Shown: positions 2,826-24,554, counted from the stretch's first letter. The stretch: 32,000 nucleotides of DNA from Massilicoli timonensis (GCF_900199515.1 NZ_LT963434.1:633272-665271), one strand, 5' to 3'. Numbers and translations are program-made. The notes: generated by a model not told the origin, from the letters alone.

Positions 2826-2857
2826 TAAAAAAAACAAGACGGCATCGGCTATCTTGT
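2826..2857 (-). terminator. Rho-independent terminator of the helicase gene
   Basis: Minus strand ACAAGA-tagccgatgccg-TCTTGT followed by T8. The hairpin overlaps the TAG stop codon. Confidence 0.7.
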
Positions 2858-4555
2858 TCTTTGTTTTCGCATCGTTTTTTTCTTACCGCGCATCGTTTGA
2901 CGACGCTGCTTTCGATCGGGGAAAACGGCTTTCTTCTGCCCTTTTGAAGAGGCTTTTTTCTTTATGTGTTTTGTCTGCTTCTTGCTTTTTGCTAATAAAC
3001 GCACGGTAACGCTTTTACCGCCGATCTTAGCATTTTGCATGCGTTCTAACAGCATCTTAGCACTGTCGGCAGCGACTGCTACCAGCGTGTCGCTTGAGCG
3101 CACATCGATGCGTCCGATCATGTCAGTCCCACTTTCGCCGTATTCCGCAATCGCGCATACCAGATTGCCCGCCTGAATGCGGTCTTTTCTGCCGATGTCA
3201 AACTGAAGGGTCAGCGTTTCATAGTCATGCAGACGACGTTTTTGATTCAATGCCGCCGTTTCAATGATCTGCGGTTTGAAATTCATCGCGATAAGTGCGC
3301 TGATCAGATTTTCGATCGCAATGCCCTCCGCCATCAGCCGATTGGCGATCTCTATGCTCTCTGCGGTAATTTCCTCTCCACATGCCGTTTTCAAGCGTTC
3401 GATAAACGCTTCTTTTTCCTGCTTTAACAGCTGGGCAGAGCTAGGCAGGGCGCACTTGCGGATATTGGTTTTCGTAAAGTGCATGATATCACGCAGCGCT
3501 CGTTCTTGTCTTTTCCCGCTAATCAAAGTAATCGCCTTCCCGCTTTTCCCAGCCCGTCCGGTTCGGCCAATGCGATGAATGTAGTATTCATTATCCTGTG
3601 GAATATCATAGTTGCATACCAGTTCCACATCATCGACGTCAATGCCGCGCGCCGCCACATCGGTGGCGATCAGGATCGGATAAGCGCCGCTGCGGTACTG
3701 CTTCATCACATTGGTGCGATGCTCCTGCTTCATATCGCCGTGCAGCGATAACACATTCATGCCCTCTGCGCTCAATTCCACCGACAGTTCATCCACCTGT
3801 TTTTTCGTATTGCAGAAGATGATCGACAAACGCGGTGCATAATGACGAAGCAAGATCTTTAACGCCGTGCCTTTTTGTCCTCTCGGCACTTCATAGTAAA
3901 GCTGCTCCACAGTGTGAATGGTTTTCTGGGCAGATGCGATTTCGACCGTAATGGGATCTTTTTGAAACTGCCCTGCGATTGCCATGATCGCTTCCGGCAT
4001 CGTTGCGGAAAACAGGATCGTCTGATGCGCATGCGGAAAGGCATGCAGGATCTCTTCAATGTCTTCCTTAAATCCCATGTTCAGCATTTCATCTGCCTCA
4101 TCTAATACTACCATATCGCAATGATGCAATTTCAGCGTATGCCGGCGCAAATGATCCATTAGCCTTCCCGGTGTTCCCACCACGATCCCACATCCCCTTG
4201 CCAAAAGCCGGATCTGATGCTGGATCGGTTCACCGCCATAGATCGGAATGATCTTTACACCCTCTTTATATTTACAAAAACGCCGCAGTTCCATTGCAAC
4301 CTGAATGACCAATTCTCTGGTCGGGCATAAGATCAGTACCTGCGGATTCTTTTGTCCTGCCTGCACATGCTCCAATGCCGGGATCCCGAAAGCGGCCGTC
4401 TTGCCGGTACCGGTCTGTGATTTTCCTAAAACATCATGACCCGCTATAATAAGCGGGATCGCCTGCTGCTGGATCGCCGTAGCTTCCTGATATCCGATTT
4501 CCAGCACCGCCTGCTTGATTGGCGCGCTGATTGCTAATTCCTGAAATGTCGTCAT
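2849..4555 (-). CDS. DEAD-box ATP-dependent RNA helicase with DbpA-type C-terminal RNA-binding domain and a Lys/Arg-rich tail
   Basis: 568 aa. Q motif (FQEL...ATAIQ), motif I SQTGTGKT, motif II VLDEADEML, SAT, ARGIDV and HRIGRTGRAG. C-terminal FDIGRKDRIQAGNLVCAIAE... matches the DbpA/YxiN RRM-like domain. Tail is KKQTKHIKKKASSKGQKK... Confidence 0.95.
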   Translation of the reverse strand: MTTFQELAISAPIKQAVLEIGYQEATAIQQQAIPLIIAGHDVLGKSQTGTGKTAAFGIPALEHVQAGQKNPQVLILCPTRELVIQVAMELRRFCKYKEGVKIIPIYGGEPIQHQIRLLARGCGIVVGTPGRLMDHLRRHTLKLHHCDMVVLDEADEMLNMGFKEDIEEILHAFPHAHQTILFSATMPEAIMAIAGQFQKDPITVEIASAQKTIHTVEQLYYEVPRGQKGTALKILLRHYAPRLSIIFCNTKKQVDELSVELSAEGMNVLSLHGDMKQEHRTNVMKQYRSGAYPILIATDVAARGIDVDDVELVCNYDIPQDNEYYIHRIGRTGRAGKSGKAITLISGKRQERALRDIMHFTKTNIRKCALPSSAQLLKQEKEAFIERLKTACGEEITAESIEIANRLMAEGIAIENLISALIAMNFKPQIIETAALNQKRRLHDYETLTLQFDIGRKDRIQAGNLVCAIAEYGESGTDMIGRIDVRSSDTLVAVAADSAKMLLERMQNAKIGGKSVTVRLLAKSKKQTKHIKKKASSKGQKKAVFPDRKQRRQTMRGKKKTMRKQRTR

Positions 4556-4701: not shown

Positions 4702-6810
4702 TTAGTTTAATTTCTTTTTCAGTGTCAATGCTCCTGCAAGTGCAAGGCTCAGCATCAGCAGTGCCGCATATGCTTCTGTCTGGCTCGCATCACCGGTATT
4801 TGGCGTACTTCCGTTCTCTGATGGTTTTGTATCATCCAAAATGATCGAAGGATTGACTACTTCTTCCTTATCCAGCGTCGTTTTCGCGCCGTCTGTATAA
4901 ACCAGTGCATAGGTCGAGAAACGATCGCTCTGGAAAGATACGGTGCCGTCCGCATTTTTCACGACCGGAATTCTGGTTACTTCATTTCCGTGGATCCGCA
5001 CGATGTAGAAGTCATAGTTTTCTTTTTGCAGCTGCTGTGGAATCGCTACGGTAAAAGTTACTTTTTCACTTAACTGATTCAGTTTGCCAAGCGCGCTTCC
5101 CTGTGCTTCTACCAAAATGCTCAGATCCAGATACTGTGCCACTTTGGCTTCTTTTGCTTCGGTTTTTGTGATCAGATCGCGTAATACCGCCTCTACTGCC
5201 TTGACATCGGACGCACTTACTTCTTCTGCTGTTTTCTTTTCCACGGTAAGTGTCGTTTCTATATCATCTCCGGCTTCCATCGCCGCCTTGATCGCAGCGA
5301 CAACCTTTTCATCATTGCCCTTTACACTTTCGATCTGCTCGATCGTGTCCTTCAGCGTTTCGGTAAATGCCGCGCTGTCTTTTTGTGATACGCCTGCTTC
5401 CACTTCATTGCTGTTTTGATCAACGGAAGGCAGATCGACAACCACTTCATTTTCCGCTTCCGCTACGCTGACCTCACAAGTTGCTTTTGCACTTCCCACA
5501 GTCGCACTGATGATCGCTGTGCCTGCTTTTTTCGCTGTTACGGTGCCATCCTGTGCAACGGTCGCAACTGATGGATCACTGCTGCTGTAAGAGATCGCTT
5601 CCGTAGCATAAGACGGAGTGACAGTCGCTTTGATCTGTGCGCTTTCTCCTACCTGAAGCGACAGGCTAAGCGGATCGATGCTAATCGTGTTTGCTTTCCA
5701 ATTTGTCGTTACATAGGCTGCGGACGCATCCACAAGTGAATGAGCATCAAGCGGATCGGCGCTTGGACGCTGTCCTAAATTTAATGTAACCGGCGCCGTT
5801 TCATTCAGCCCTTCGATCGCCCATAAACGATCAGCGTATAATGCTTTGAACTTGGCTACATCGTCGCTGCGATACTGGAATCCGGATACGATGTCTTGGT
5901 AAGCAGCACCTGCTTCCACGTTGATTTCAATTGCGTTCGCATAGCCATAATCAACATTGCCGAAATTTGTCGTCCACCAAGAACCGGCGCCGCCGGCTCC
6001 TTCATAGCTTTCTTCATCAGGATAATAAGAGCCCGCATAGATCACACCGCTCTTACCGCCATAAAGATGGTAAGTCAGTTTCCCTTCGATGATCGCACGA
6101 TATAAGCTGCTGAGCGTCTTGACCTCTCCGTCATATAAAGAAAGCGTTACGTTGCCCAGTTTGCCGTTTGTTCCTGCGATAAAATTGTTTAATACAGCGG
6201 CTTGCTCCTCACCGATGCGAACATCCATCTCACCGATATAAGTATAAGAGGTAGCGCCTCTTAGATCATTGATCTCAGCGCCGTCGATCGTCATCGTCAG
6301 TTTATCGATCGCATAATTTTTATAAGAATAGCCGTTTTCTTCTTTGATCACAGCTTGGCCAAACGCTGCGTTCTGATTATCAGTACCCCATAATCCAAGC
6401 GTGATCTTACCGCCGTTGATATCTACTTCGGCATTCGTCACTTTGCTGGTTTTGCAGCTTTTCTCGTTTTTCATCTTGTTTCCGGCAACGATGCCTCTTA
6501 CCGTACCGCCATTCATCGTAATCTTGGTGCTAGGCAGATTGACAGCACTCTCAGTTGAATCACTGCCGCCGTAAACGATGTCATCGGCATCGATCAGCTG
6601 TTTTCCGCCATCCCATGTGATAAGCGCTGATTTCCCCGCTTCATCACTTTCTTCAATGGTAATCGGTGTACCGTTGGCAAAAAATTCATTTCCTGAGTAA
6701 GTCGGAGCAGAACCGCTGTTGCCTTCCGCATAAACCGTTGTCGGTACAACGCTCATGCCAAAAAGCAGTGCAGCTGATGCCAACACACCAAAAACACTTG
6801 TTTTTTTCAT
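4702..6810 (-). CDS. Sortase-anchored cell-surface protein (signal peptide, beta-helix-like Gly-rich repeats, Big_2 Ig-like domain, acidic Ala/Glu/Lys-rich stalk, C-terminal sorting signal TPNTG)
   Basis: I place the start at MKKTSVFGVLASAALLFGMSVVPTTVYA|EGN (ATG 6810) because AAGGAGAGGAGA lies 6 nt upstream. The ORF-track ATG at 6855 has no RBS and would lie about 12 nt from the predicted TSS. Big_2-like segment is ISIDPLSLSLQVGESAQIKATVTP...SSDPSVATVAQDGTVTAKKAGTAIISATV. The C-terminus is TPNTG, a hydrophobic helix, then KKKLN. Confidence 0.8.
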   Translation of the reverse strand: MKKTSVFGVLASAALLFGMSVVPTTVYAEGNSGSAPTYSGNEFFANGTPITIEESDEAGKSALITWDGGKQLIDADDIVYGGSDSTESAVNLPSTKITMNGGTVRGIVAGNKMKNEKSCKTSKVTNAEVDINGGKITLGLWGTDNQNAAFGQAVIKEENGYSYKNYAIDKLTMTIDGAEINDLRGATSYTYIGEMDVRIGEEQAAVLNNFIAGTNGKLGNVTLSLYDGEVKTLSSLYRAIIEGKLTYHLYGGKSGVIYAGSYYPDEESYEGAGGAGSWWTTNFGNVDYGYANAIEINVEAGAAYQDIVSGFQYRSDDVAKFKALYADRLWAIEGLNETAPVTLNLGQRPSADPLDAHSLVDASAAYVTTNWKANTISIDPLSLSLQVGESAQIKATVTPSYATEAISYSSSDPSVATVAQDGTVTAKKAGTAIISATVGSAKATCEVSVAEAENEVVVDLPSVDQNSNEVEAGVSQKDSAAFTETLKDTIEQIESVKGNDEKVVAAIKAAMEAGDDIETTLTVEKKTAEEVSASDVKAVEAVLRDLITKTEAKEAKVAQYLDLSILVEAQGSALGKLNQLSEKVTFTVAIPQQLQKENYDFYIVRIHGNEVTRIPVVKNADGTVSFQSDRFSTYALVYTDGAKTTLDKEEVVNPSIILDDTKPSENGSTPNTGDASQTEAYAALLMLSLALAGALTLKKKLN

Positions 6811-6873
6811 TTCGTTTCTCCTCTCCTTGTATTCTGTTGAATCCGGACATATCATTCTGATATATTCAGCTAT

Positions 6874-6904
6874 ATTATACCCCCCCCCCAGTCATATTTG
6901 TCAA
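6874..6904 (-). promoter_or_regulatory. Consensus sigma-A promoter with a G10 homopolymer in the spacer (predicted phase-variable)
   Basis: Minus strand TTGACA (6904-6899), aatatgact, GGGGGGGGGG (6889-6880), TATAAT (6879-6874). The spacer is 19 bp as sequenced. Confidence 0.65.
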
Positions 6905-7071
6905 TAGCAATCGTTACCTTTTTCTCGTATTATGATCATTATTTTTACATTTTCTGTAACCGCTTTACCAATCCTTGTGCACATATACCACTTTCTCATC
7001 TTTTCATCATTTTTATTTTTGCCTGCCACGCTTCGACAAACTTCTGCTTTCACACTTGCTATACTGTAAGC

Positions 7072-7176
7072 GGCAAGAGGAACTTGCCATACGGAAAATC
7101 CCCTAATCTATCCCAATTCCGTATATCATTCTATCCCCTAAAACAAGGAAAAAGCCGGTCTTGCTGCCGGTTTTTT
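7072..7176 (+). ncRNA. C-rich sibling small RNA, copy A (putative; ends approximate)
   Basis: Extended -10 TGcTATACT (7057-7065). SL1 is GGCAAG-aggaa-CTTGCC (7072-7088). SL2 is ATACGGAA/TTCCGTAT (7089-7124) with a 20-nt loop carrying CCCC and CCC. Invariant 17-mer ATATCATTCTATCCCCT is at 7123-7139. Terminator is CCGG-tcttgctg-CCGG plus T6 (7155-7176). No + strand gene lies downstream. Confidence 0.55.
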
Positions 7177-7305
7177 CCTATCTTTGACAAAATTCACGCA
7201 AATTCTCCTTCATCATCATACAATCTAACACAATTATCTCGATAATCACATCATTTACCAAAAATGAAACATCTTTTTAACATTGCCATTCGCTATACTA
7301 TAGCC

Positions 7306-7431
7306 AACAGGAGATGAGAACTCCTGTTGAAGTAATCCCCTTAAATAAATTTTCTCATAACTTTTCTCCCTTAATTTTGTATTGATAATTTGTTAATGAA
7401 AAAATACCGTTTCCCCAAGACGGTATTTTTT
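7306..7431 (+). ncRNA. C-rich sibling small RNA, copy B (divergent paralog; putative)
   Basis: -10 box TATACTATAG (7294-7303). Perfect 9-bp SL1 CAACAGGAG-atgagaa-CTCCTGTTG (7305-7329). AATCCCCTTA and TTCTCCCTTA motifs are present. Terminator is ATACCGT-ttccccaag-ACGGTAT plus T6 (7404-7431), with CCCC in the loop. Same order of elements as A, C and D, but the middle is diverged. Confidence 0.4.
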
Positions 7432-7711
7432 CTGTATAAGTGCATAACAATCAACTATTTTGATGTTTATTGCAACTGAAAAAAAAGTAAAAAAATCATC
7501 TTTTGTTCGTTTATTGTTAGTTACAGCCATCTATCCCTATTACATTCTCATCTTAGAACAAAACTCATATTTTCGCATGACAAAGTACTGTCATTTTCCC
7601 AACTTTCATTGTTTGTTCACTTGCTCATCCATTGAGAAGATCAACAAGACTTTGTACGTTTATGAAAAACAAGCAAAAGAAAATAAGAACGATCCGGTGA
7701 ACGGCAGATTT

Positions 7712-8512
7712 CTATAAGGCGTGAAAAAGCGGCTGCCCTTTCTCAAACGTACAAAACGAAGAAAACCCACATGCCCTTAACACCTGTTTGCCCTCCTCGA
7801 TATAAGCGCCGACCTGTGCGGCATCGTGAGAATCAGAACCGATCGTAACGATCACGCCGCCCAGTTCCCGATAACGCTTCAAAATCATATGGGAAGGCGT
7901 GCTGTCCGCAAGACCATAGCGATGATAAGAAGTGTTTAATTCAATGCCTTTGCCTTTTTCGATCGCCAGCTTTAAGATCGCATCGATCACGTCCATACAC
8001 GCTTCATCCGGATAAACGCCCTGCTCATCATAGCGCTTGATCATATCCAAATGTCCCAGCACCTGATAATCATCAAAGCGTTTCATGACCGCCAAGATCG
8101 CTTCGTAATACTGTCTGTTGTATTCCGCCTGCGTTTTGCCTTTTTGAAAACCCTGATCCCAAAACTCCAGATCATCGATCTGATGGTTTGATAAAATGAT
8201 AAAGTCAAAGGGATAAGCCGCATATACTTCCTGATAGCGCTTGATACACGCCTCCTGCACGCCGAACTCACAGCCAAAGCGAATCGTGATCTGATCCTGA
8301 TAGCGTTTCTTTAATGCCAGATAGTGCTCATAATAACGAGGAAAATCCAATTCCCAAAGTCCATGCCCTGCACCCTTGACGCTGTAATCACAATGATCCG
8401 TGATGCAGATCTCATCAAGACCTTTTCGGATCGCGGTTTCGATCAGTTCCTCTAAAGGAAGCGCGCTGTCCGGGGAAAAAGCACTGTGCATATGATAATC
8501 AGCCAACATCAT
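7712..8512 (-). CDS. PHP-domain histidinol-phosphatase, HisJ family
   Basis: 266 aa. Metal-binding motifs DYHMHSAFSPDS, ICITDHCDY, LGHLD and IGSDSH. AAGGAGA RBS upstream. Confidence 0.85.
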   Translation of the reverse strand: MMLADYHMHSAFSPDSALPLEELIETAIRKGLDEICITDHCDYSVKGAGHGLWELDFPRYYEHYLALKKRYQDQITIRFGCEFGVQEACIKRYQEVYAAYPFDFIILSNHQIDDLEFWDQGFQKGKTQAEYNRQYYEAILAVMKRFDDYQVLGHLDMIKRYDEQGVYPDEACMDVIDAILKLAIEKGKGIELNTSYHRYGLADSTPSHMILKRYRELGGVIVTIGSDSHDAAQVGAYIEEGKQVLRACGFSSFCTFEKGQPLFHAL

Positions 8513-8561
8513 TCATTTCTCCTTTCTATATCGCAAAATCATTGTACCAGAAGTAAGCAAA

Positions 8562-8600
8562 AATGCAAAAGAAAAAGGATGCAACACATCGTCATCCTTT
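8562..8600 (-). terminator. Terminator downstream of trxA
   Basis: Minus strand AAAGGATG-acgatgtgttg-CATCCTTT followed by the T-rich TTCTTTTGCATTTTT. A TTTGCA-17-TACAAT candidate promoter for the downstream phosphatase gene (8569-8541) overlaps its tail. Confidence 0.55.
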
Positions 8601-8614
8601 CTCACCACAGCAGA

Positions 8615-8926
8615 CTATAAATAAGCTTCGATCATCGCTTTCAGCTGTTCTTTCGGCTGGAATCCGGCACTCATCTTCACTGCCTCTCCATCCTTGAAAA
8701 CGATCAGCGTCGGCACCGACATGATGCCATAAGAGGAAGCCAATTCTCCTGATTCATCGACATCTACTTTTACGATCGCAGCCTTTCCCGCTAATTCTTC
8801 TGCCACTTCTTCCAAAACCGGTGACAACATTTTACAAGGTCCGCACCATGTCGCAAAGAAATCTACGACCAGTACGCCCGGCTGTTTTTTCAATTCTTCA
8901 AATTCCGCTTGCTTGATTACTTTCAT
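8615..8926 (-). CDS. trxA: Thioredoxin
   Basis: 103 aa with a WCGPC active site and the thioredoxin fold pattern (VVDFFATWCGPCKMLSP...VPTLIVFKDGE). Its start overlaps the upstream stop (ATGA). Confidence 0.95.
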   Translation of the reverse strand: MKVIKQAEFEELKKQPGVLVVDFFATWCGPCKMLSPVLEEVAEELAGKAAIVKVDVDESGELASSYGIMSVPTLIVFKDGEAVKMSAGFQPKEQLKAMIEAYL

Positions 8927-9819
8927 ACATTTTCCTCCGTTTCACCAATATGATATTGTTTCAATGTTTCGATAATGCCGTCATGATCATGATCGGCTAC
9001 AGTGATAGTATACGCCTTTTGCTTTACAATATCCATTGCGTTGCTCATTGCGATCGGATAAGCGCACACTTCAAACATGCTCAGATCATTTTCCCCATCG
9101 CCAAAACACATGACTTCGCTCATCGGAATGGACAAGCGCTGTGCCAGCATGCGCAATGCCTTGCCCTTGCTGAGATTGACCGGCATAATTTCCAGCCAAG
9201 TCGGCGTCGTACGGCCGATCCAGTACGTATCGCTCAGTTCACTGAGATCTTTCATCATCACTTCCAACTGCTTCGCTGTTGCGGGAATGCCGACCTTATT
9301 GATCTCTTCGACGATCTCGGAAGCGTGTTCCATATACATAATGCGCGCATAACCGTCCCGCGCATCAAAAAACACATTTGTGGCACCGGCGGTCCATGGG
9401 AAATCATCCGGGATATGATGTTCTTTACGCAGTTTCTTTTTTTCCTGCATACACACCTCGGGAATATGCACATATAAGCCGTCATCCATGATATATTGGG
9501 TTTCCACCTCATAAGGCTGAAGCAGGGCAAACAGTTCCCTGGCCTGTTGAATGGAAAGACGTTCCAGCACCTCACGCTGTTTCTTTTGCAGGTCATTGAT
9601 CGCCATTCCGTTTACTTCGATCAAATAGCCGCCGTACTTCTCTAACTGTAACTGCTCGGCATAGCGTTTCAAACGATTATAATTACGGCCGCTCACCAAC
9701 ACGATCTTAATGCCTTTTTGTTGCAGCTCGATCAGCTTCTTTGTCGTTTTCTCACTGATCGTCTGATCGCTTTGTAACAGCGTGCCGTCCATATCCATTG
9801 CAATTAACGATATTTTCAT
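8923..9819 (-). CDS. HAD-IIB (Cof-type) sugar-phosphatase family hydrolase
   Basis: Start moved to MKISLIAMDMDGTLL (ATG 9819, RBS GAGGTGG 5 nt upstream). DxDGT motif I, VSGR motif II and GDGENDLSM motif IV are present. Translationally coupled to trxA. Confidence 0.85.
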   Translation of the reverse strand: MKISLIAMDMDGTLLQSDQTISEKTTKKLIELQQKGIKIVLVSGRNYNRLKRYAEQLQLEKYGGYLIEVNGMAINDLQKKQREVLERLSIQQARELFALLQPYEVETQYIMDDGLYVHIPEVCMQEKKKLRKEHHIPDDFPWTAGATNVFFDARDGYARIMYMEHASEIVEEINKVGIPATAKQLEVMMKDLSELSDTYWIGRTTPTWLEIMPVNLSKGKALRMLAQRLSIPMSEVMCFGDGENDLSMFEVCAYPIAMSNAMDIVKQKAYTITVADHDHDGIIETLKQYHIGETEENV

Positions 9820-9951
9820 ATCTTCCACCTCATCTTCGTCAATTATACACTGATTCATTGGGAAACGCTATAACATTTCATGTAGTTGTTTCACAAAAAA
9901 GATGAATTCCGCATGCTTTTGTATTATGATTAAGCTAAGAAGGTGAAACAG

Positions 9952-14573: not shown

Positions 14574-15104
14574 TCATAAACATAAAACAAAGGTCAATGC
14601 GTCATAGCGTTTCCCCGCTACTTCCCGATGCTCTTTTTTGCGGGCGATCTCTTTGAATCCCAGCTTGTTCGCCAGTGCGATCATCGCTTCATTGCCTGAC
14701 CATGTCTGGGTATATAAACACGTTAGCCCTTTCGCTCGATAATAATCGATCGCCTTGCACAAAGCAAGCCTGCCATATCCTTTTCCACGATAACCGTCCT
14801 GCGCGATGCTGATGCCGATCGCTAAGCCGCTTTCAGGAGCAGTAAACCATTCCATATCCCGATAAGTGCTGATCCAGCCGACATGGACGCCGTCCACTTC
14901 TATTTCAAAGCGACAGCAAAGCGTATTGGCAGACCTTTTTTGCATTTGTTCATAATAGTTCGTCCAGTTTTCCCGCTCCTCTTGCACAGTACCGGTAAAC
15001 GGCTCCCATGGTGCATCTGTCGATCCCCACTTCGTTTCTGTGGTAAACCAGCGTACATAATCTTCAATATCTGTTTGTTTCATTTCCCGCAGCAACAACA
15101 TCAT
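14574..15104 (-). CDS. GNAT-family N-acetyltransferase
   Basis: 176 aa. Motif A region YRGKGYGRLAL. AGGAGGGTG RBS; the start may be the second ATG at 15101. Confidence 0.85.
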   Translation of the reverse strand: MMLLLREMKQTDIEDYVRWFTTETKWGSTDAPWEPFTGTVQEERENWTNYYEQMQKRSANTLCCRFEIEVDGVHVGWISTYRDMEWFTAPESGLAIGISIAQDGYRGKGYGRLALCKAIDYYRAKGLTCLYTQTWSGNEAMIALANKLGFKEIARKKEHREVAGKRYDALTFVLCL

Positions 15105-18766: not shown

Positions 18767-18891
18767 GAACATCACCACCGCTATCATTCTACCATGTTTC
18801 CTTAAAATTGGATATAACAGATTTGAAATTTTACCATATTCTGATCCTTCGAAGATCACTTTTCAGATACGTGCTTTTTGAAAAAAAGTTA

Positions 18892-18934: not shown

Positions 18935-19008
18935 GGTTCCGTAGCCAAGTGGTAAGGCAATAGACTGCAACTCTGTGATCATCGGTTCAAATCCGATCGG
19001 AACCTCCA
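18935..19008 (+). tRNA. tRNA-Cys (anticodon GCA), CCA encoded
   Basis: Hand-folded cloverleaf. Acceptor GGTTCCG/CGGAACC. Anticodon stem ATAGA/TCTGT with loop CTGCAAC. T arm ATCGG-TTCAAAT-CCGAT. Discriminator T then CCA. Confidence 0.9.
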
Positions 19009-19013
19009 TTATT

Positions 19014-19103
19014 GGGGACATGGCGGAATAGGCAGACGCAACGGACTTAAAATCCGTTGGGAATTATACTCCCGTGCGGGTTCAAGTCCCGCTGTCCCCA
19101 CCA
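19014..19103 (+). tRNA. tRNA-Leu (anticodon TAA), long variable arm, CCA encoded
   Basis: Acceptor GGGGACA/TGTCCCC. Anticodon stem ACGGA/TCCGT with loop CTTAAAA. Variable arm GGGA...TCCC. T arm GCGGG-TTCAAGT-CCCGC. Discriminator A then CCA. Confidence 0.9.
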
Positions 19104-19763: not shown

Positions 19764-20017
19764 ATTTCTTTGGCATATCGTAATTGACGCATCTAAACAG
19801 TCATTCCTTACAATATGCTTTCTCCTTTCTTCCAATCAATTGCCACTGTGATTGGATCCAGCTGCGTTGTCGTTCCTTTTTCATTCGTCATGAATGTTTC
19901 CGTTTACTTGGTCTTCGGTCAATCAGCAAGCACACCTATTTTTAATTCCTACTAAATTCACATGATTTACCACAATCATACGATATTTTTGCGATTGCTT
20001 TCTTCTATACTATTACC

Positions 20018-20132
20018 AGACAAGGAAACTTGTCGTGGATAACGATTCCCCTATCGTATATCCATATCATTCTATCCCCTTATAAATCATAATTTTTTAG
20101 TGGAAAAGCATCCGTTCCCCACGGATGTTTTT
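20018..20132 (+). ncRNA. C-rich sibling small RNA, copy C (putative; ends approximate)
   Basis: -10 box TATACTATTA (20006-20015). SL1 is GACAAG-gaaa-CTTGTC (20019-20034). SL2 is GGATAACGAT-tcccct-ATCGTaTATCC (20037-20063). Invariant 17-mer is at 20064-20080. Terminator is GCATCCG-ttcccca-CGGATGT plus T5 (20108-20132). Confidence 0.55.
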
Positions 20133-20222
20133 CTTTGTCTGAAACAGCTGCCTTTTTTGCTTTCACATCATTTACCATAAAGGATTGATATTTTCGCGAA
20201 AGCAAATTCGTATAGTATAGAC

Positions 20223-20348
20223 AGGCAAAGGAAAACCTTTGTCAAATGGAAAACTATGAGATCCCCTCTTAGTAGTTTCCCATATCATTCTATCCCCTTA
20301 TAATTCATACTTTTATGGAAAGAACGCCATCCCCCTCGGCGTTCTTTT
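20223..20348 (+). ncRNA. C-rich sibling small RNA, copy D (putative; ends approximate)
   Basis: -10 box TATAGTATAG (20211-20220). SL1 is GGCAAAGG-aaaa-CCTTTGTC with a G-U pair possible only on the + strand (20224-20243). SL2 is GGAAAaCTA...TAGTTTCC (20248-20280) with loop ...GATCCCCTC... Invariant 17-mer is at 20282-20298. Terminator is GAACGCC-atccccctc-GGCGTTC plus T4 (20322-20348). Confidence 0.55.
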
Positions 20349-20421
20349 CCATTTTCATACACAAAAGTATAGGAAAAGAAACCCTATATGTGATTCCTTC
20401 CCCCTGCAAGCAGCGCTTGTT

Positions 20422-24374: not shown

Positions 24375-24554
24375 AAAAACTCCTTTCCCATGTTGCCATG
24401 TATGCTCATTCTATCCTATTATACTAACAAAGACTGAAAAATACCATAAAAGATTAGCAGGCAGTATGCGATCAGCACGGCTTTCTATCAGGAAAAGCAG
24501 AGAAAAAACATCACATGTCTTTTTTCATCACTTGTTTATCAACAGCTTTCCGAT

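Follow-up and report, generated by a model that had tools for sequence, protein, structure and literature searches.

A candidate multicopy family of C-rich small RNA genes in gut Erysipelotrichaceae

Results

Two units in an intergenic gap

The window analyzed here is a 32,000-nt stretch of Massilicoli timonensis DNA (GCF_900199515.1, NZ_LT963434.1:633272-665271), and all positions are counted from its first nucleotide. An 855-bp gap in the window is bracketed by two minus-strand genes, one encoding a Big_2 surface protein (ORF 4702-6855) and the other a member of the hisJ family (7712-8512). The Big_2 ORF runs mechanically from 6855 and comprises 717 aa; metagenome gene calls and a ribosome-binding site (AAGGAGAGGAG) put the likely start at 6810, for a product of 702 aa. 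Its putative promoter, on the minus strand, pairs a perfect TTGACA (6904-6899) with an equally perfect TATAAT (6879-6874) across a 19-nt spacer that contains a G10 run. The poly-C/G tract (6880-6889) is 10, 11 or 12 nt long across six metagenomic strains of the species. By its sequence, this promoter has the classic layout for phase variation via promoter-spacer length.

The gap carries two plus-strand units, A and B. Unit A begins with a TATACT -10 box (7060-7065) directly preceded by TGC, which by sequence inspection makes it an extended -10 element (TGCTATACT, 7057-7065). Seven nt past the box is the onset of a predicted 5' hairpin (7072-7088), followed by hairpin 2 (7089-7124), whose 20-nt loop displays two C-rich motifs (CCCC at 7100-7103 and CCC at 7112-7114). 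The seed, AUAUCAUUCUAUCCCCU (7123-7139), is single-stranded in the fold, and its CCCC at 7135-7138 lies inside a 21-nt single-stranded stretch carrying AUCCCCU. An intrinsic terminator with a 14-pair stem and a T6 run (7146-7179) closes the unit, and the predicted RNA would extend approximately from 7071 to 7181. In unit B, recognized by sequence and alignment, the TATACT box (7294-7299) is followed after 6 nt by a 5' hairpin with a 9-pair stem (7305-7329). The middle of the unit is a long, weakly structured A/U-rich stretch with AUCCCCU (7335-7341, CCCC at 7337-7340) and CUCCCU (CUCCC at 7366-7370), and here the seed, CAUAACUUUUCUCCCUUAA (7356-7374), comprises an anti-AUG plus an anti-Shine-Dalgarno element. 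The terminator (7398-7432) has a 15-pair stem, a T6 run and CCCC in its loop (7413-7416); the predicted RNA would run from about 7304 to about 7434.

An earlier note on this DNA had described two such units, each made of a TATACT -10 box (extended in A), a 5' hairpin 6 to 7 nt beyond it, C-rich segments in loops and single-stranded parts, and a strong intrinsic terminator with T6, and had pointed out that no plus-strand gene follows either unit, both flanking genes being on the minus strand. That observation is confirmed in each of its parts. The note had also suggested a decayed third copy at 7529-7555. We reject this candidate: the resemblance is a 12/13 match with a marginal local-alignment score that 13 of 300 shuffled sequences also reach, and a covariance-model search there returns nothing at E≤10.

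The -10 region is overrepresented as a motif, with five occurrences of GCTATACTRTA at no more than one mismatch against 0.39 expected, and the count of promoter-like sites in the region is no higher than in shuffled sequences. Compared with shuffles, the plus strand folds far more stably (z = -5.2 for A and -6.6 for B) than the minus strand (z = -1.7 and -2.8, respectively). A simple terminator scan overlooked the terminators of both units because in each the T-run lies inside the extended stem. Both terminators (7146-7179 and 7398-7432) combine an A-run ahead of the stem with a T-run behind it and are bidirectional in form; they could also stop convergent hisJ-trx transcripts arriving from the minus strand. 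The gene callers placed no gene in the gaps that hold units.

Further copies and homologues

Searching the window with the motif ATCCCCTWA led to two further units. Unit C (19959-20137, plus strand) has an upstream box at 19959-19972, a -10 box at 20006-20011 and a predicted RNA at 20015-20137, with CCCC in the terminator loop. Unit D (20164-20352, plus strand) has the corresponding box at 20164-20177, a TATAGT -10 box at 20211-20216 and a predicted RNA at 20220-20352, with CCCCC in the terminator loop. Both carry the seed type of unit A, and they stand in tandem between two minus-strand genes. The 32-kb window therefore contains four copies arranged as two tandem pairs, A/B and C/D, in keeping with the further copies beyond A and B of which the earlier note had spoken; the covariance model and the upstream-box search described below recover them. 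In the window, none of the four is followed by a plus-strand gene.

A 17-mer, ATATCATTCTATCCCCT, is common to A, C and D. Exact-match scanning for it over one genome per species in 185,579 species gave 56 loci, about equal to the roughly 70 chance matches of our own estimate, a figure that no tool supplied. Fifteen of the 56 belong to Erysipelotrichaceae, with taxonomy checked: Merdibacter massiliensis and five other Merdibacter, Copranaerobaculum intestinale, and uncultured gut lineages. In all 15, the 17-mer is surrounded by the whole unit, that is, an upstream box, the -10 box, hairpin 1, hairpin 2, the seed and the terminator. Invariance of the 17-mer among A-type homologues is partly an artefact of ascertainment by exact match; everything around it counts as independent evidence. 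The sequence of the A-type terminator stem varies by lineage, and in the Merdibacter group the terminator T-run is broken (CTTTCT).

Within the species, six metagenomic strains have identical copies of A and B, setting aside an N-run that covers 7119-7136 of A in L061, and nine have identical copies of C and D; single-nucleotide polymorphisms occur in the flanks of both pairs. This invariance is weak support, since overall diversity is low.

A conserved small ORF was considered and rejected. Twenty-three codons are possible in the Merdibacter copies and in B, A lacks an ATG, and no frame or position is common to the copies.

Covariation and strand

We built a covariance model, R1, from A, C, D and the 15 homologues, leaving B out of the training set. 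MAFFT followed by RNAalifold on the raw alignment overlooked the terminator because the stems were misaligned, and the sequences were re-aligned to the model with a structure specified by hand. With filters off, R1 scores 95.7 bits on A, 68.4 on C, 59.2 on D and 24.5 on B, and these four copies, all on the plus strand, are its only matches in the window with E<0.01. A spurious 11-bit match overlaps the second of two adjacent plus-strand tRNA genes (18935-19100) together with its terminator. Since R1 reaches 18 to 26 bits on unrelated loci with a chance 17-mer, 24.5 bits is insufficient by itself for B; judged from sequence, the membership of B is a matter of its orthologues and of the upstream box that it has in common with C and D, not of the score.

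In the model-based alignment of 21 members, which was fitted to the model and so favors the structure, 96.2% of the cells pair, compared with 74.8% in shuffles, and double changes occur at 23 of the 27 pairs, with all three helices covarying. The covariation score is 0.693, against 0.265 for shuffled alignments (none of 500 reaches 0.693) and about 0.1 with slid partners. The same pattern is visible in the raw sequences, where hairpin 1 is closed by GGCAAG/CTTGCC in some lineages and by GACAGAT/ATCTGTC in others, and the terminator stems differ wholly between lineages.

Several features bear on the strand. The alignment contains 39 G-U cells, and pairing is 96.2% on the given strand versus 90.9% on the opposite one. 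Unpaired columns are 6.9% G and 24.5% C. The distance from the -10 box to the base of the 5' hairpin, read by eye, is 6 nt in 15 of 16 class-1 (A-type) promoters. Together, the G-U pairs, the G-poor and C-rich unpaired columns and the upstream -10 box support the plus strand as the one that would be transcribed. C-rich motifs are disposed alike across the family: all A-type members, as well as C and D, have two or three CCC runs in the hairpin-2 loop and CCCC (that is, two overlapping CCC) in the linker, and CCC also occurs in the terminator loop of B, C, D and five homologues, but not of A.

Two subtypes and two promoter classes

Upstream of the -10 boxes are two kinds of conserved box. The class-1 box, TTCGACA, lies at 7032-7038 on the plus strand and occupies about -40 to -34, with exactly 21 nt between its end and the -10 box of unit A; the composite TTCGACA-N21-TAKAMT has this single match in the window. 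For L001, L055 and L047 (where the heptamer reads TTCGTCA in the last), counting the spacer to the -10 box also gave 21 nt, and by eye rather than by pattern search the arrangement looks alike in the other 12 A-type homologues. The class-2 box, CACATNNTTTAMCA, covers about -59 to -46 and precedes B, C and D, in each case ending 33 nt before the -10 box; in unit B it is CACATCATTTACCA, at 7247-7260 on the plus strand, and the 33-nt spacing is exact. The box is matched exactly three times in the window, each time ahead of B, C or D, with 0.24 expected for the count at up to one mismatch. B-type copies in L047, L037 and L034 have the class-2 box at the identical 33-nt spacing. As 21 and 33 nt before the -10 are not canonical -35 distances, we infer that the boxes are activator sites. 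Compared by eye with CiaR, Rex, Fur, cre, sigma-B and MerR-type spacer promoters, the boxes fit none. A search for the CiaR repeat NTTAAG-N5-TTTAAG at up to two mismatches gave nine matches in the window, versus 10.8 expected, and none upstream of A to D.

The seeds fall into two kinds as well, AUAUCAUUCUAUCCCCU for the A-type and CAUACUUUCUCCCUU for the B-type. B-type copies have the common seed (U)UCAUACUUUCUCCCUUUU, of which CAUAACUUUUCUCCCUUAA in the window is a variant. R1 also matches a B-like copy downstream of the A-type one in L047 (Copranaerobaculum intestinale DONG20-135, NZ_WUUQ01000006.1; B-like copy at 3077-3197, 37 bits, A-type copy at 3446-3557) and in L037 (2205-2326, 24 bits), and the box search added another in L034. 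The A-then-B tandem thus recurs in at least three other lineages, L047, L037 and L034. A human gut contig (L069, OGXN01000661.1) presents three tandem B-type units at 2012-2615 with a period of about 240 nt, each preceded by the box variant (C/A)ACATNNTCTAACA, from the end of which it is 33 nt to TATACT; the contig also holds a group II intron at 4129-4408. In C and D of this species, the A-type seed is combined with the class-2 promoter.

These comparisons make A and B two separate subtypes, each conserved and each with a seed and an upstream box of its own. The earlier view of A and B as siblings holds insofar as they belong to one family of 21 members with covarying helices; they are not simple duplicates of each other.

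Comparison with databases

We ran cmscan with all 4227 families of Rfam 15 at the gathering score over the window and 16 related loci and found only tRNAs and a group II intron. A permissive search (E≤10) of 6800-7800 and 19850-20420 gave no match to LhrC, csRNA or RsaE either, and what it returned was at noise level (for example, sau-63 at 18 bits versus a gathering score of 100). No known Rfam family explains the units, a different explanation that the earlier note had envisaged. A full-text literature search returned no described sRNA in Erysipelotrichaceae, the sole mention being of an unrelated riboswitch candidate. On this sequence evidence, A to D belong to an apparently undescribed sRNA gene family of gut Erysipelotrichaceae.

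Genomic neighborhood

Both window loci, like 12 of the 15 homologous ones, have their downstream gene on the opposite strand; of the remaining homologous loci, two have no ORF of at least 90 aa there and one has a same-strand ORF. A gene for a CshA-like DEAD-box helicase diverges from the A-type copy in L007, L022, L034, L037 and L047. The helicase encoded in the window is 58% identical to the L037 protein, and tblastn against all five loci gave 60 to 64% identity. Thioredoxin and Cof-type HAD hydrolase genes form the other flank of the locus, Merdibacter included. The conserved order is helicase, sRNA(s), thioredoxin and Cof-type hydrolase (2849-4555 and 7712-9858 in the window; also L047, L034, L037, L001 and others). 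In the lineage of the window, this order is interrupted around the sRNAs by inserted hisJ-family and Big_2 genes, the latter standing between the helicase gene and unit A. This synteny argues for a vertically inherited chromosomal gene and against a mobile repeat.

Complementarity to ribosome-binding sites

The reverse complement of the B seed, AAAAGGGAGAAAGTATGAA, reads as a Shine-Dalgarno sequence (AAGGGAG), a 5-nt spacer and ATG. Scanning metagenomes with the B-type 19-mer yielded 70 loci, three of them family members and the others mostly genuine gene starts on the opposite strand. In unrelated metagenomic sequences, 54 distinct occurrences of the 19-mer were counted, and in 35 of them it is antisense to the beginning of an ORF that has 60 or more codons. 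The antisense of the A seed, AGGGGATAGAATGATAT, also resembles a Shine-Dalgarno sequence with ATG but falls at gene starts more rarely, in 9 of its 41 chance occurrences, so that the evidence is weaker for the A-type.

Among the 26 translation-initiation regions of the window, six pair more strongly with the B seed than does the 1% tail of a coding-region background. For the A seed, three of the 26 lie beyond that tail, one of them the Big_2 5' UTR site, which is not the true Big_2 start. When the seeds alone were paired with the window, three sites stood out: the Big_2 5' UTR, the gene for a GNAT acetyltransferase (14574-15104) and one for an MprF-like protein (637-1686). The Big_2 5' UTR has, at 6847-6858 on the minus strand and about 10 to 20 nt downstream of the predicted transcript start, the sequence AGAAUGAUAUGU, which is identical in six strains and complementary to the seed of A, C and D over 10 nt perfectly and over 12 nt with G-U pairs. 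The seed-only duplex has a predicted energy of -20.6 kcal/mol with A and -22.8 kcal/mol with C, below all 600 background segments. With full-length RNAs, pairing to the Big_2 UTR did not reach significance when shuffled UTRs served as controls (A, 65/300; C, 134/300; D, 35/300), and the site is not conserved in other species.

Two other minus-strand complements of the A seed, each of 10 to 11 nt (24406-24416 and 18782-18791), were discounted because they overlap -10-like TAGAAT boxes. They lie just after or within -10-like boxes (TATAAT, TGGTAGAAT), behind which are genes for a 559-aa product of unknown family and for an AI-2E transporter. As the antisense of the seed contains TAGAAT, these complements are probably compositional. 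In-silico duplexes established no specific target among the genes of the window.

Discussion

Taken together, the data suggest, with a probability that we put at roughly 0.7, that A and B are independently transcribed plus-strand regulatory sRNA genes of about 110 and 130 nt, belonging to one conserved Erysipelotrichaceae family whose products probably act by anti-Shine-Dalgarno pairing. Such an RNA would have its 5' end at the base of a protective hairpin and its 3' end at the intrinsic terminator, displaying between the two its G-poor, C-rich segments in loops and single-stranded linkers. These segments would pair with the Shine-Dalgarno regions of mRNAs, and those of the B-type also with the start codon. 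Pairing would then block 30S binding and translation initiation and would probably expose the mRNA to RNases. Pairing at the Shine-Dalgarno sequence is the most likely mode of action because the RNAs are G-poor and repeat their C-rich motifs in loops, linker and terminator loop. This mode has been demonstrated for LhrC (PMC4132741) and for RoxS/RsaE (PMC4409812) and proposed for the csRNAs (PMC3091779). Through putative DNA-binding activators, the sibling copies probably connect two different signals to target sets that overlap.

A bolder version would make the family a core module, vertically inherited across Erysipelotrichaceae, in which two seeds and two transcription factors damp many mRNAs as a generic ribosome-binding-site antisense, with the A-type copies acting also on the phase-variable Big_2 5' UTR and coupling the poly-G switch to sRNA control. 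As a whole, we consider this unlikely.

Four other accounts of the units deserve weighing. The RNAs might mainly titrate an RNA-binding protein that recognizes the repeated (U)AUCCC(C)U, as CsrB/RsmY are sponges for CsrA. Two to five similar C-rich motifs per RNA, placed in loops and linkers, would suit such a role, as would the multiple gene copies and the lack of a specific mRNA target in the duplex searches of the window. Against it, the B seed fits a full Shine-Dalgarno sequence, spacer and AUG rather than a short protein motif, and we know of no global Firmicutes RNA-binding regulator that recognizes a C-rich motif. Moreover, the multiple C-rich motifs of LhrC and RoxS act by base pairing (PMC4132741, PMC4409812), and we judge the sponge improbable. 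Alternatively, the A-type copies could act locally on the Big_2 mRNA through AGAAUGAUAUGU, adding an RNA layer to the phase-variable promoter. The 10- to 12-nt complement and the seed-only energies below the entire background speak for this idea, which has a parallel in LhrC, whose targets include the surface adhesin LapB (PMC4132741). It is weakened by the non-significant full-length pairing, by the distance of the site from the Shine-Dalgarno sequence and by the absence of the Big_2 gene at that position from related loci that retain the sRNAs; the other 10- to 11-nt matches in the window, overlapping -10-like TAGAAT, suggest compositional bias. Local action on Big_2 is quite doubtful to us.

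The two remaining accounts would deny that the units are stand-alone genes. If they served the convergent hisJ-trx operon and the divergent genes as bidirectional terminators or insulators, lying beside chance -10-like boxes in an AT-rich spacer, the A-runs and T-runs that work on either strand and the shuffle-level count of promoter-like sites would be as expected; left unexplained would be the covarying 5' hairpin, hairpin 2 and the conserved seed, the fixed spacing from -10 to hairpin, the two upstream boxes kept across genera and the tandem arrays of complete units. This makes an insulator very unlikely. We find it extremely unlikely that the units are cis-regulatory leaders or riboswitches, or pieces of minus-strand UTRs. 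The units of the Merdibacter group have an ORF on their own strand that stops about 38 nt before them, and an origin from a 3' UTR is conceivable there. A leader reading conflicts with the convergent downstream gene at 12 of 15 loci and the absence of any plus-strand gene after A, B, C or D, and no alternative antiterminator fold is evident. As UTR pieces of the minus strand, the units would have to be reconciled with weak folding on that strand and the loss of the G-U pairs there, and the Big_2 promoter (6874-6904) is outside them. The convergent downstream genes, the fixed -10 spacing and the covariation instead favor stand-alone sibling sRNAs, which is how the earlier note had read A and B.

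Erysipelotrichaceae are common gut commensals. For small RNA genes of the proposed kind, the two conserved promoter boxes would be concrete handles on the sensing systems behind them, and the hypothesis is open to direct test, thanks to the covariance model and to carriers available in culture, Copranaerobaculum intestinale and Merdibacter massiliensis.

Three known groups of RNAs invite comparison, and the earlier note had claimed analogy, not homology, with LhrC and RsaE; the analogy stands, in that C-rich unpaired motifs are present and the Rfam models are unmatched. LhrC1-5 of Listeria monocytogenes are, like the present family, multicopy, partly tandem, about 110 nt long and G-poor, and their promoters need an element upstream of -53, which is about the position of the class-2 box here (PMC4132741); no LisR consensus exists (PMC4132741). 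Unlike LhrC, the present RNAs are from Erysipelotrichia rather than Listeria, have an extra 5' hairpin, come as two seed subtypes with two promoter classes, and have no detectable homology with LhrC in sequence or structure. The CiaR-dependent csRNAs of Streptococcus (ccnA-E) likewise comprise several similar sRNAs (PMC3091779). As in the B-type, their 5' stem-loop and terminator flank an unpaired region complementary to Shine-Dalgarno and AUG, and a conserved box at fixed spacing from the -10 replaces the canonical -35 (PMC3091779). The present family differs in host clade, in its extra C-rich loop motifs and in having no NTTAAG-N5-TTTAAG 10 nt before the -10. RsaE/RoxS of Bacillales also has several unpaired C-rich regions, which in that RNA pair with G-rich Shine-Dalgarno sequences, and an activator site far upstream of the promoter (about -65 for ResD), the counterpart of which is putative here (PMC4409812). 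RsaE/RoxS, however, is a single-copy gene with a duplicated CCCCUUUGUU, a motif absent from the copies in the window, and we recognized no ResD-like site upstream of them.

In its predicted action, the family thus resembles LhrC, the csRNAs and RsaE, and by these comparisons it is a member of none. Judged by its sequences, it is a new sRNA family of the multicopy anti-Shine-Dalgarno kind already known in Firmicutes, with no new regulatory principle. If the proposed reading is true, it would be the counterpart in this clade of LhrC, the csRNAs and RsaE, and would bring to three or four the independent cases in Firmicutes of multicopy, C-rich RNAs directed against the Shine-Dalgarno sequence.
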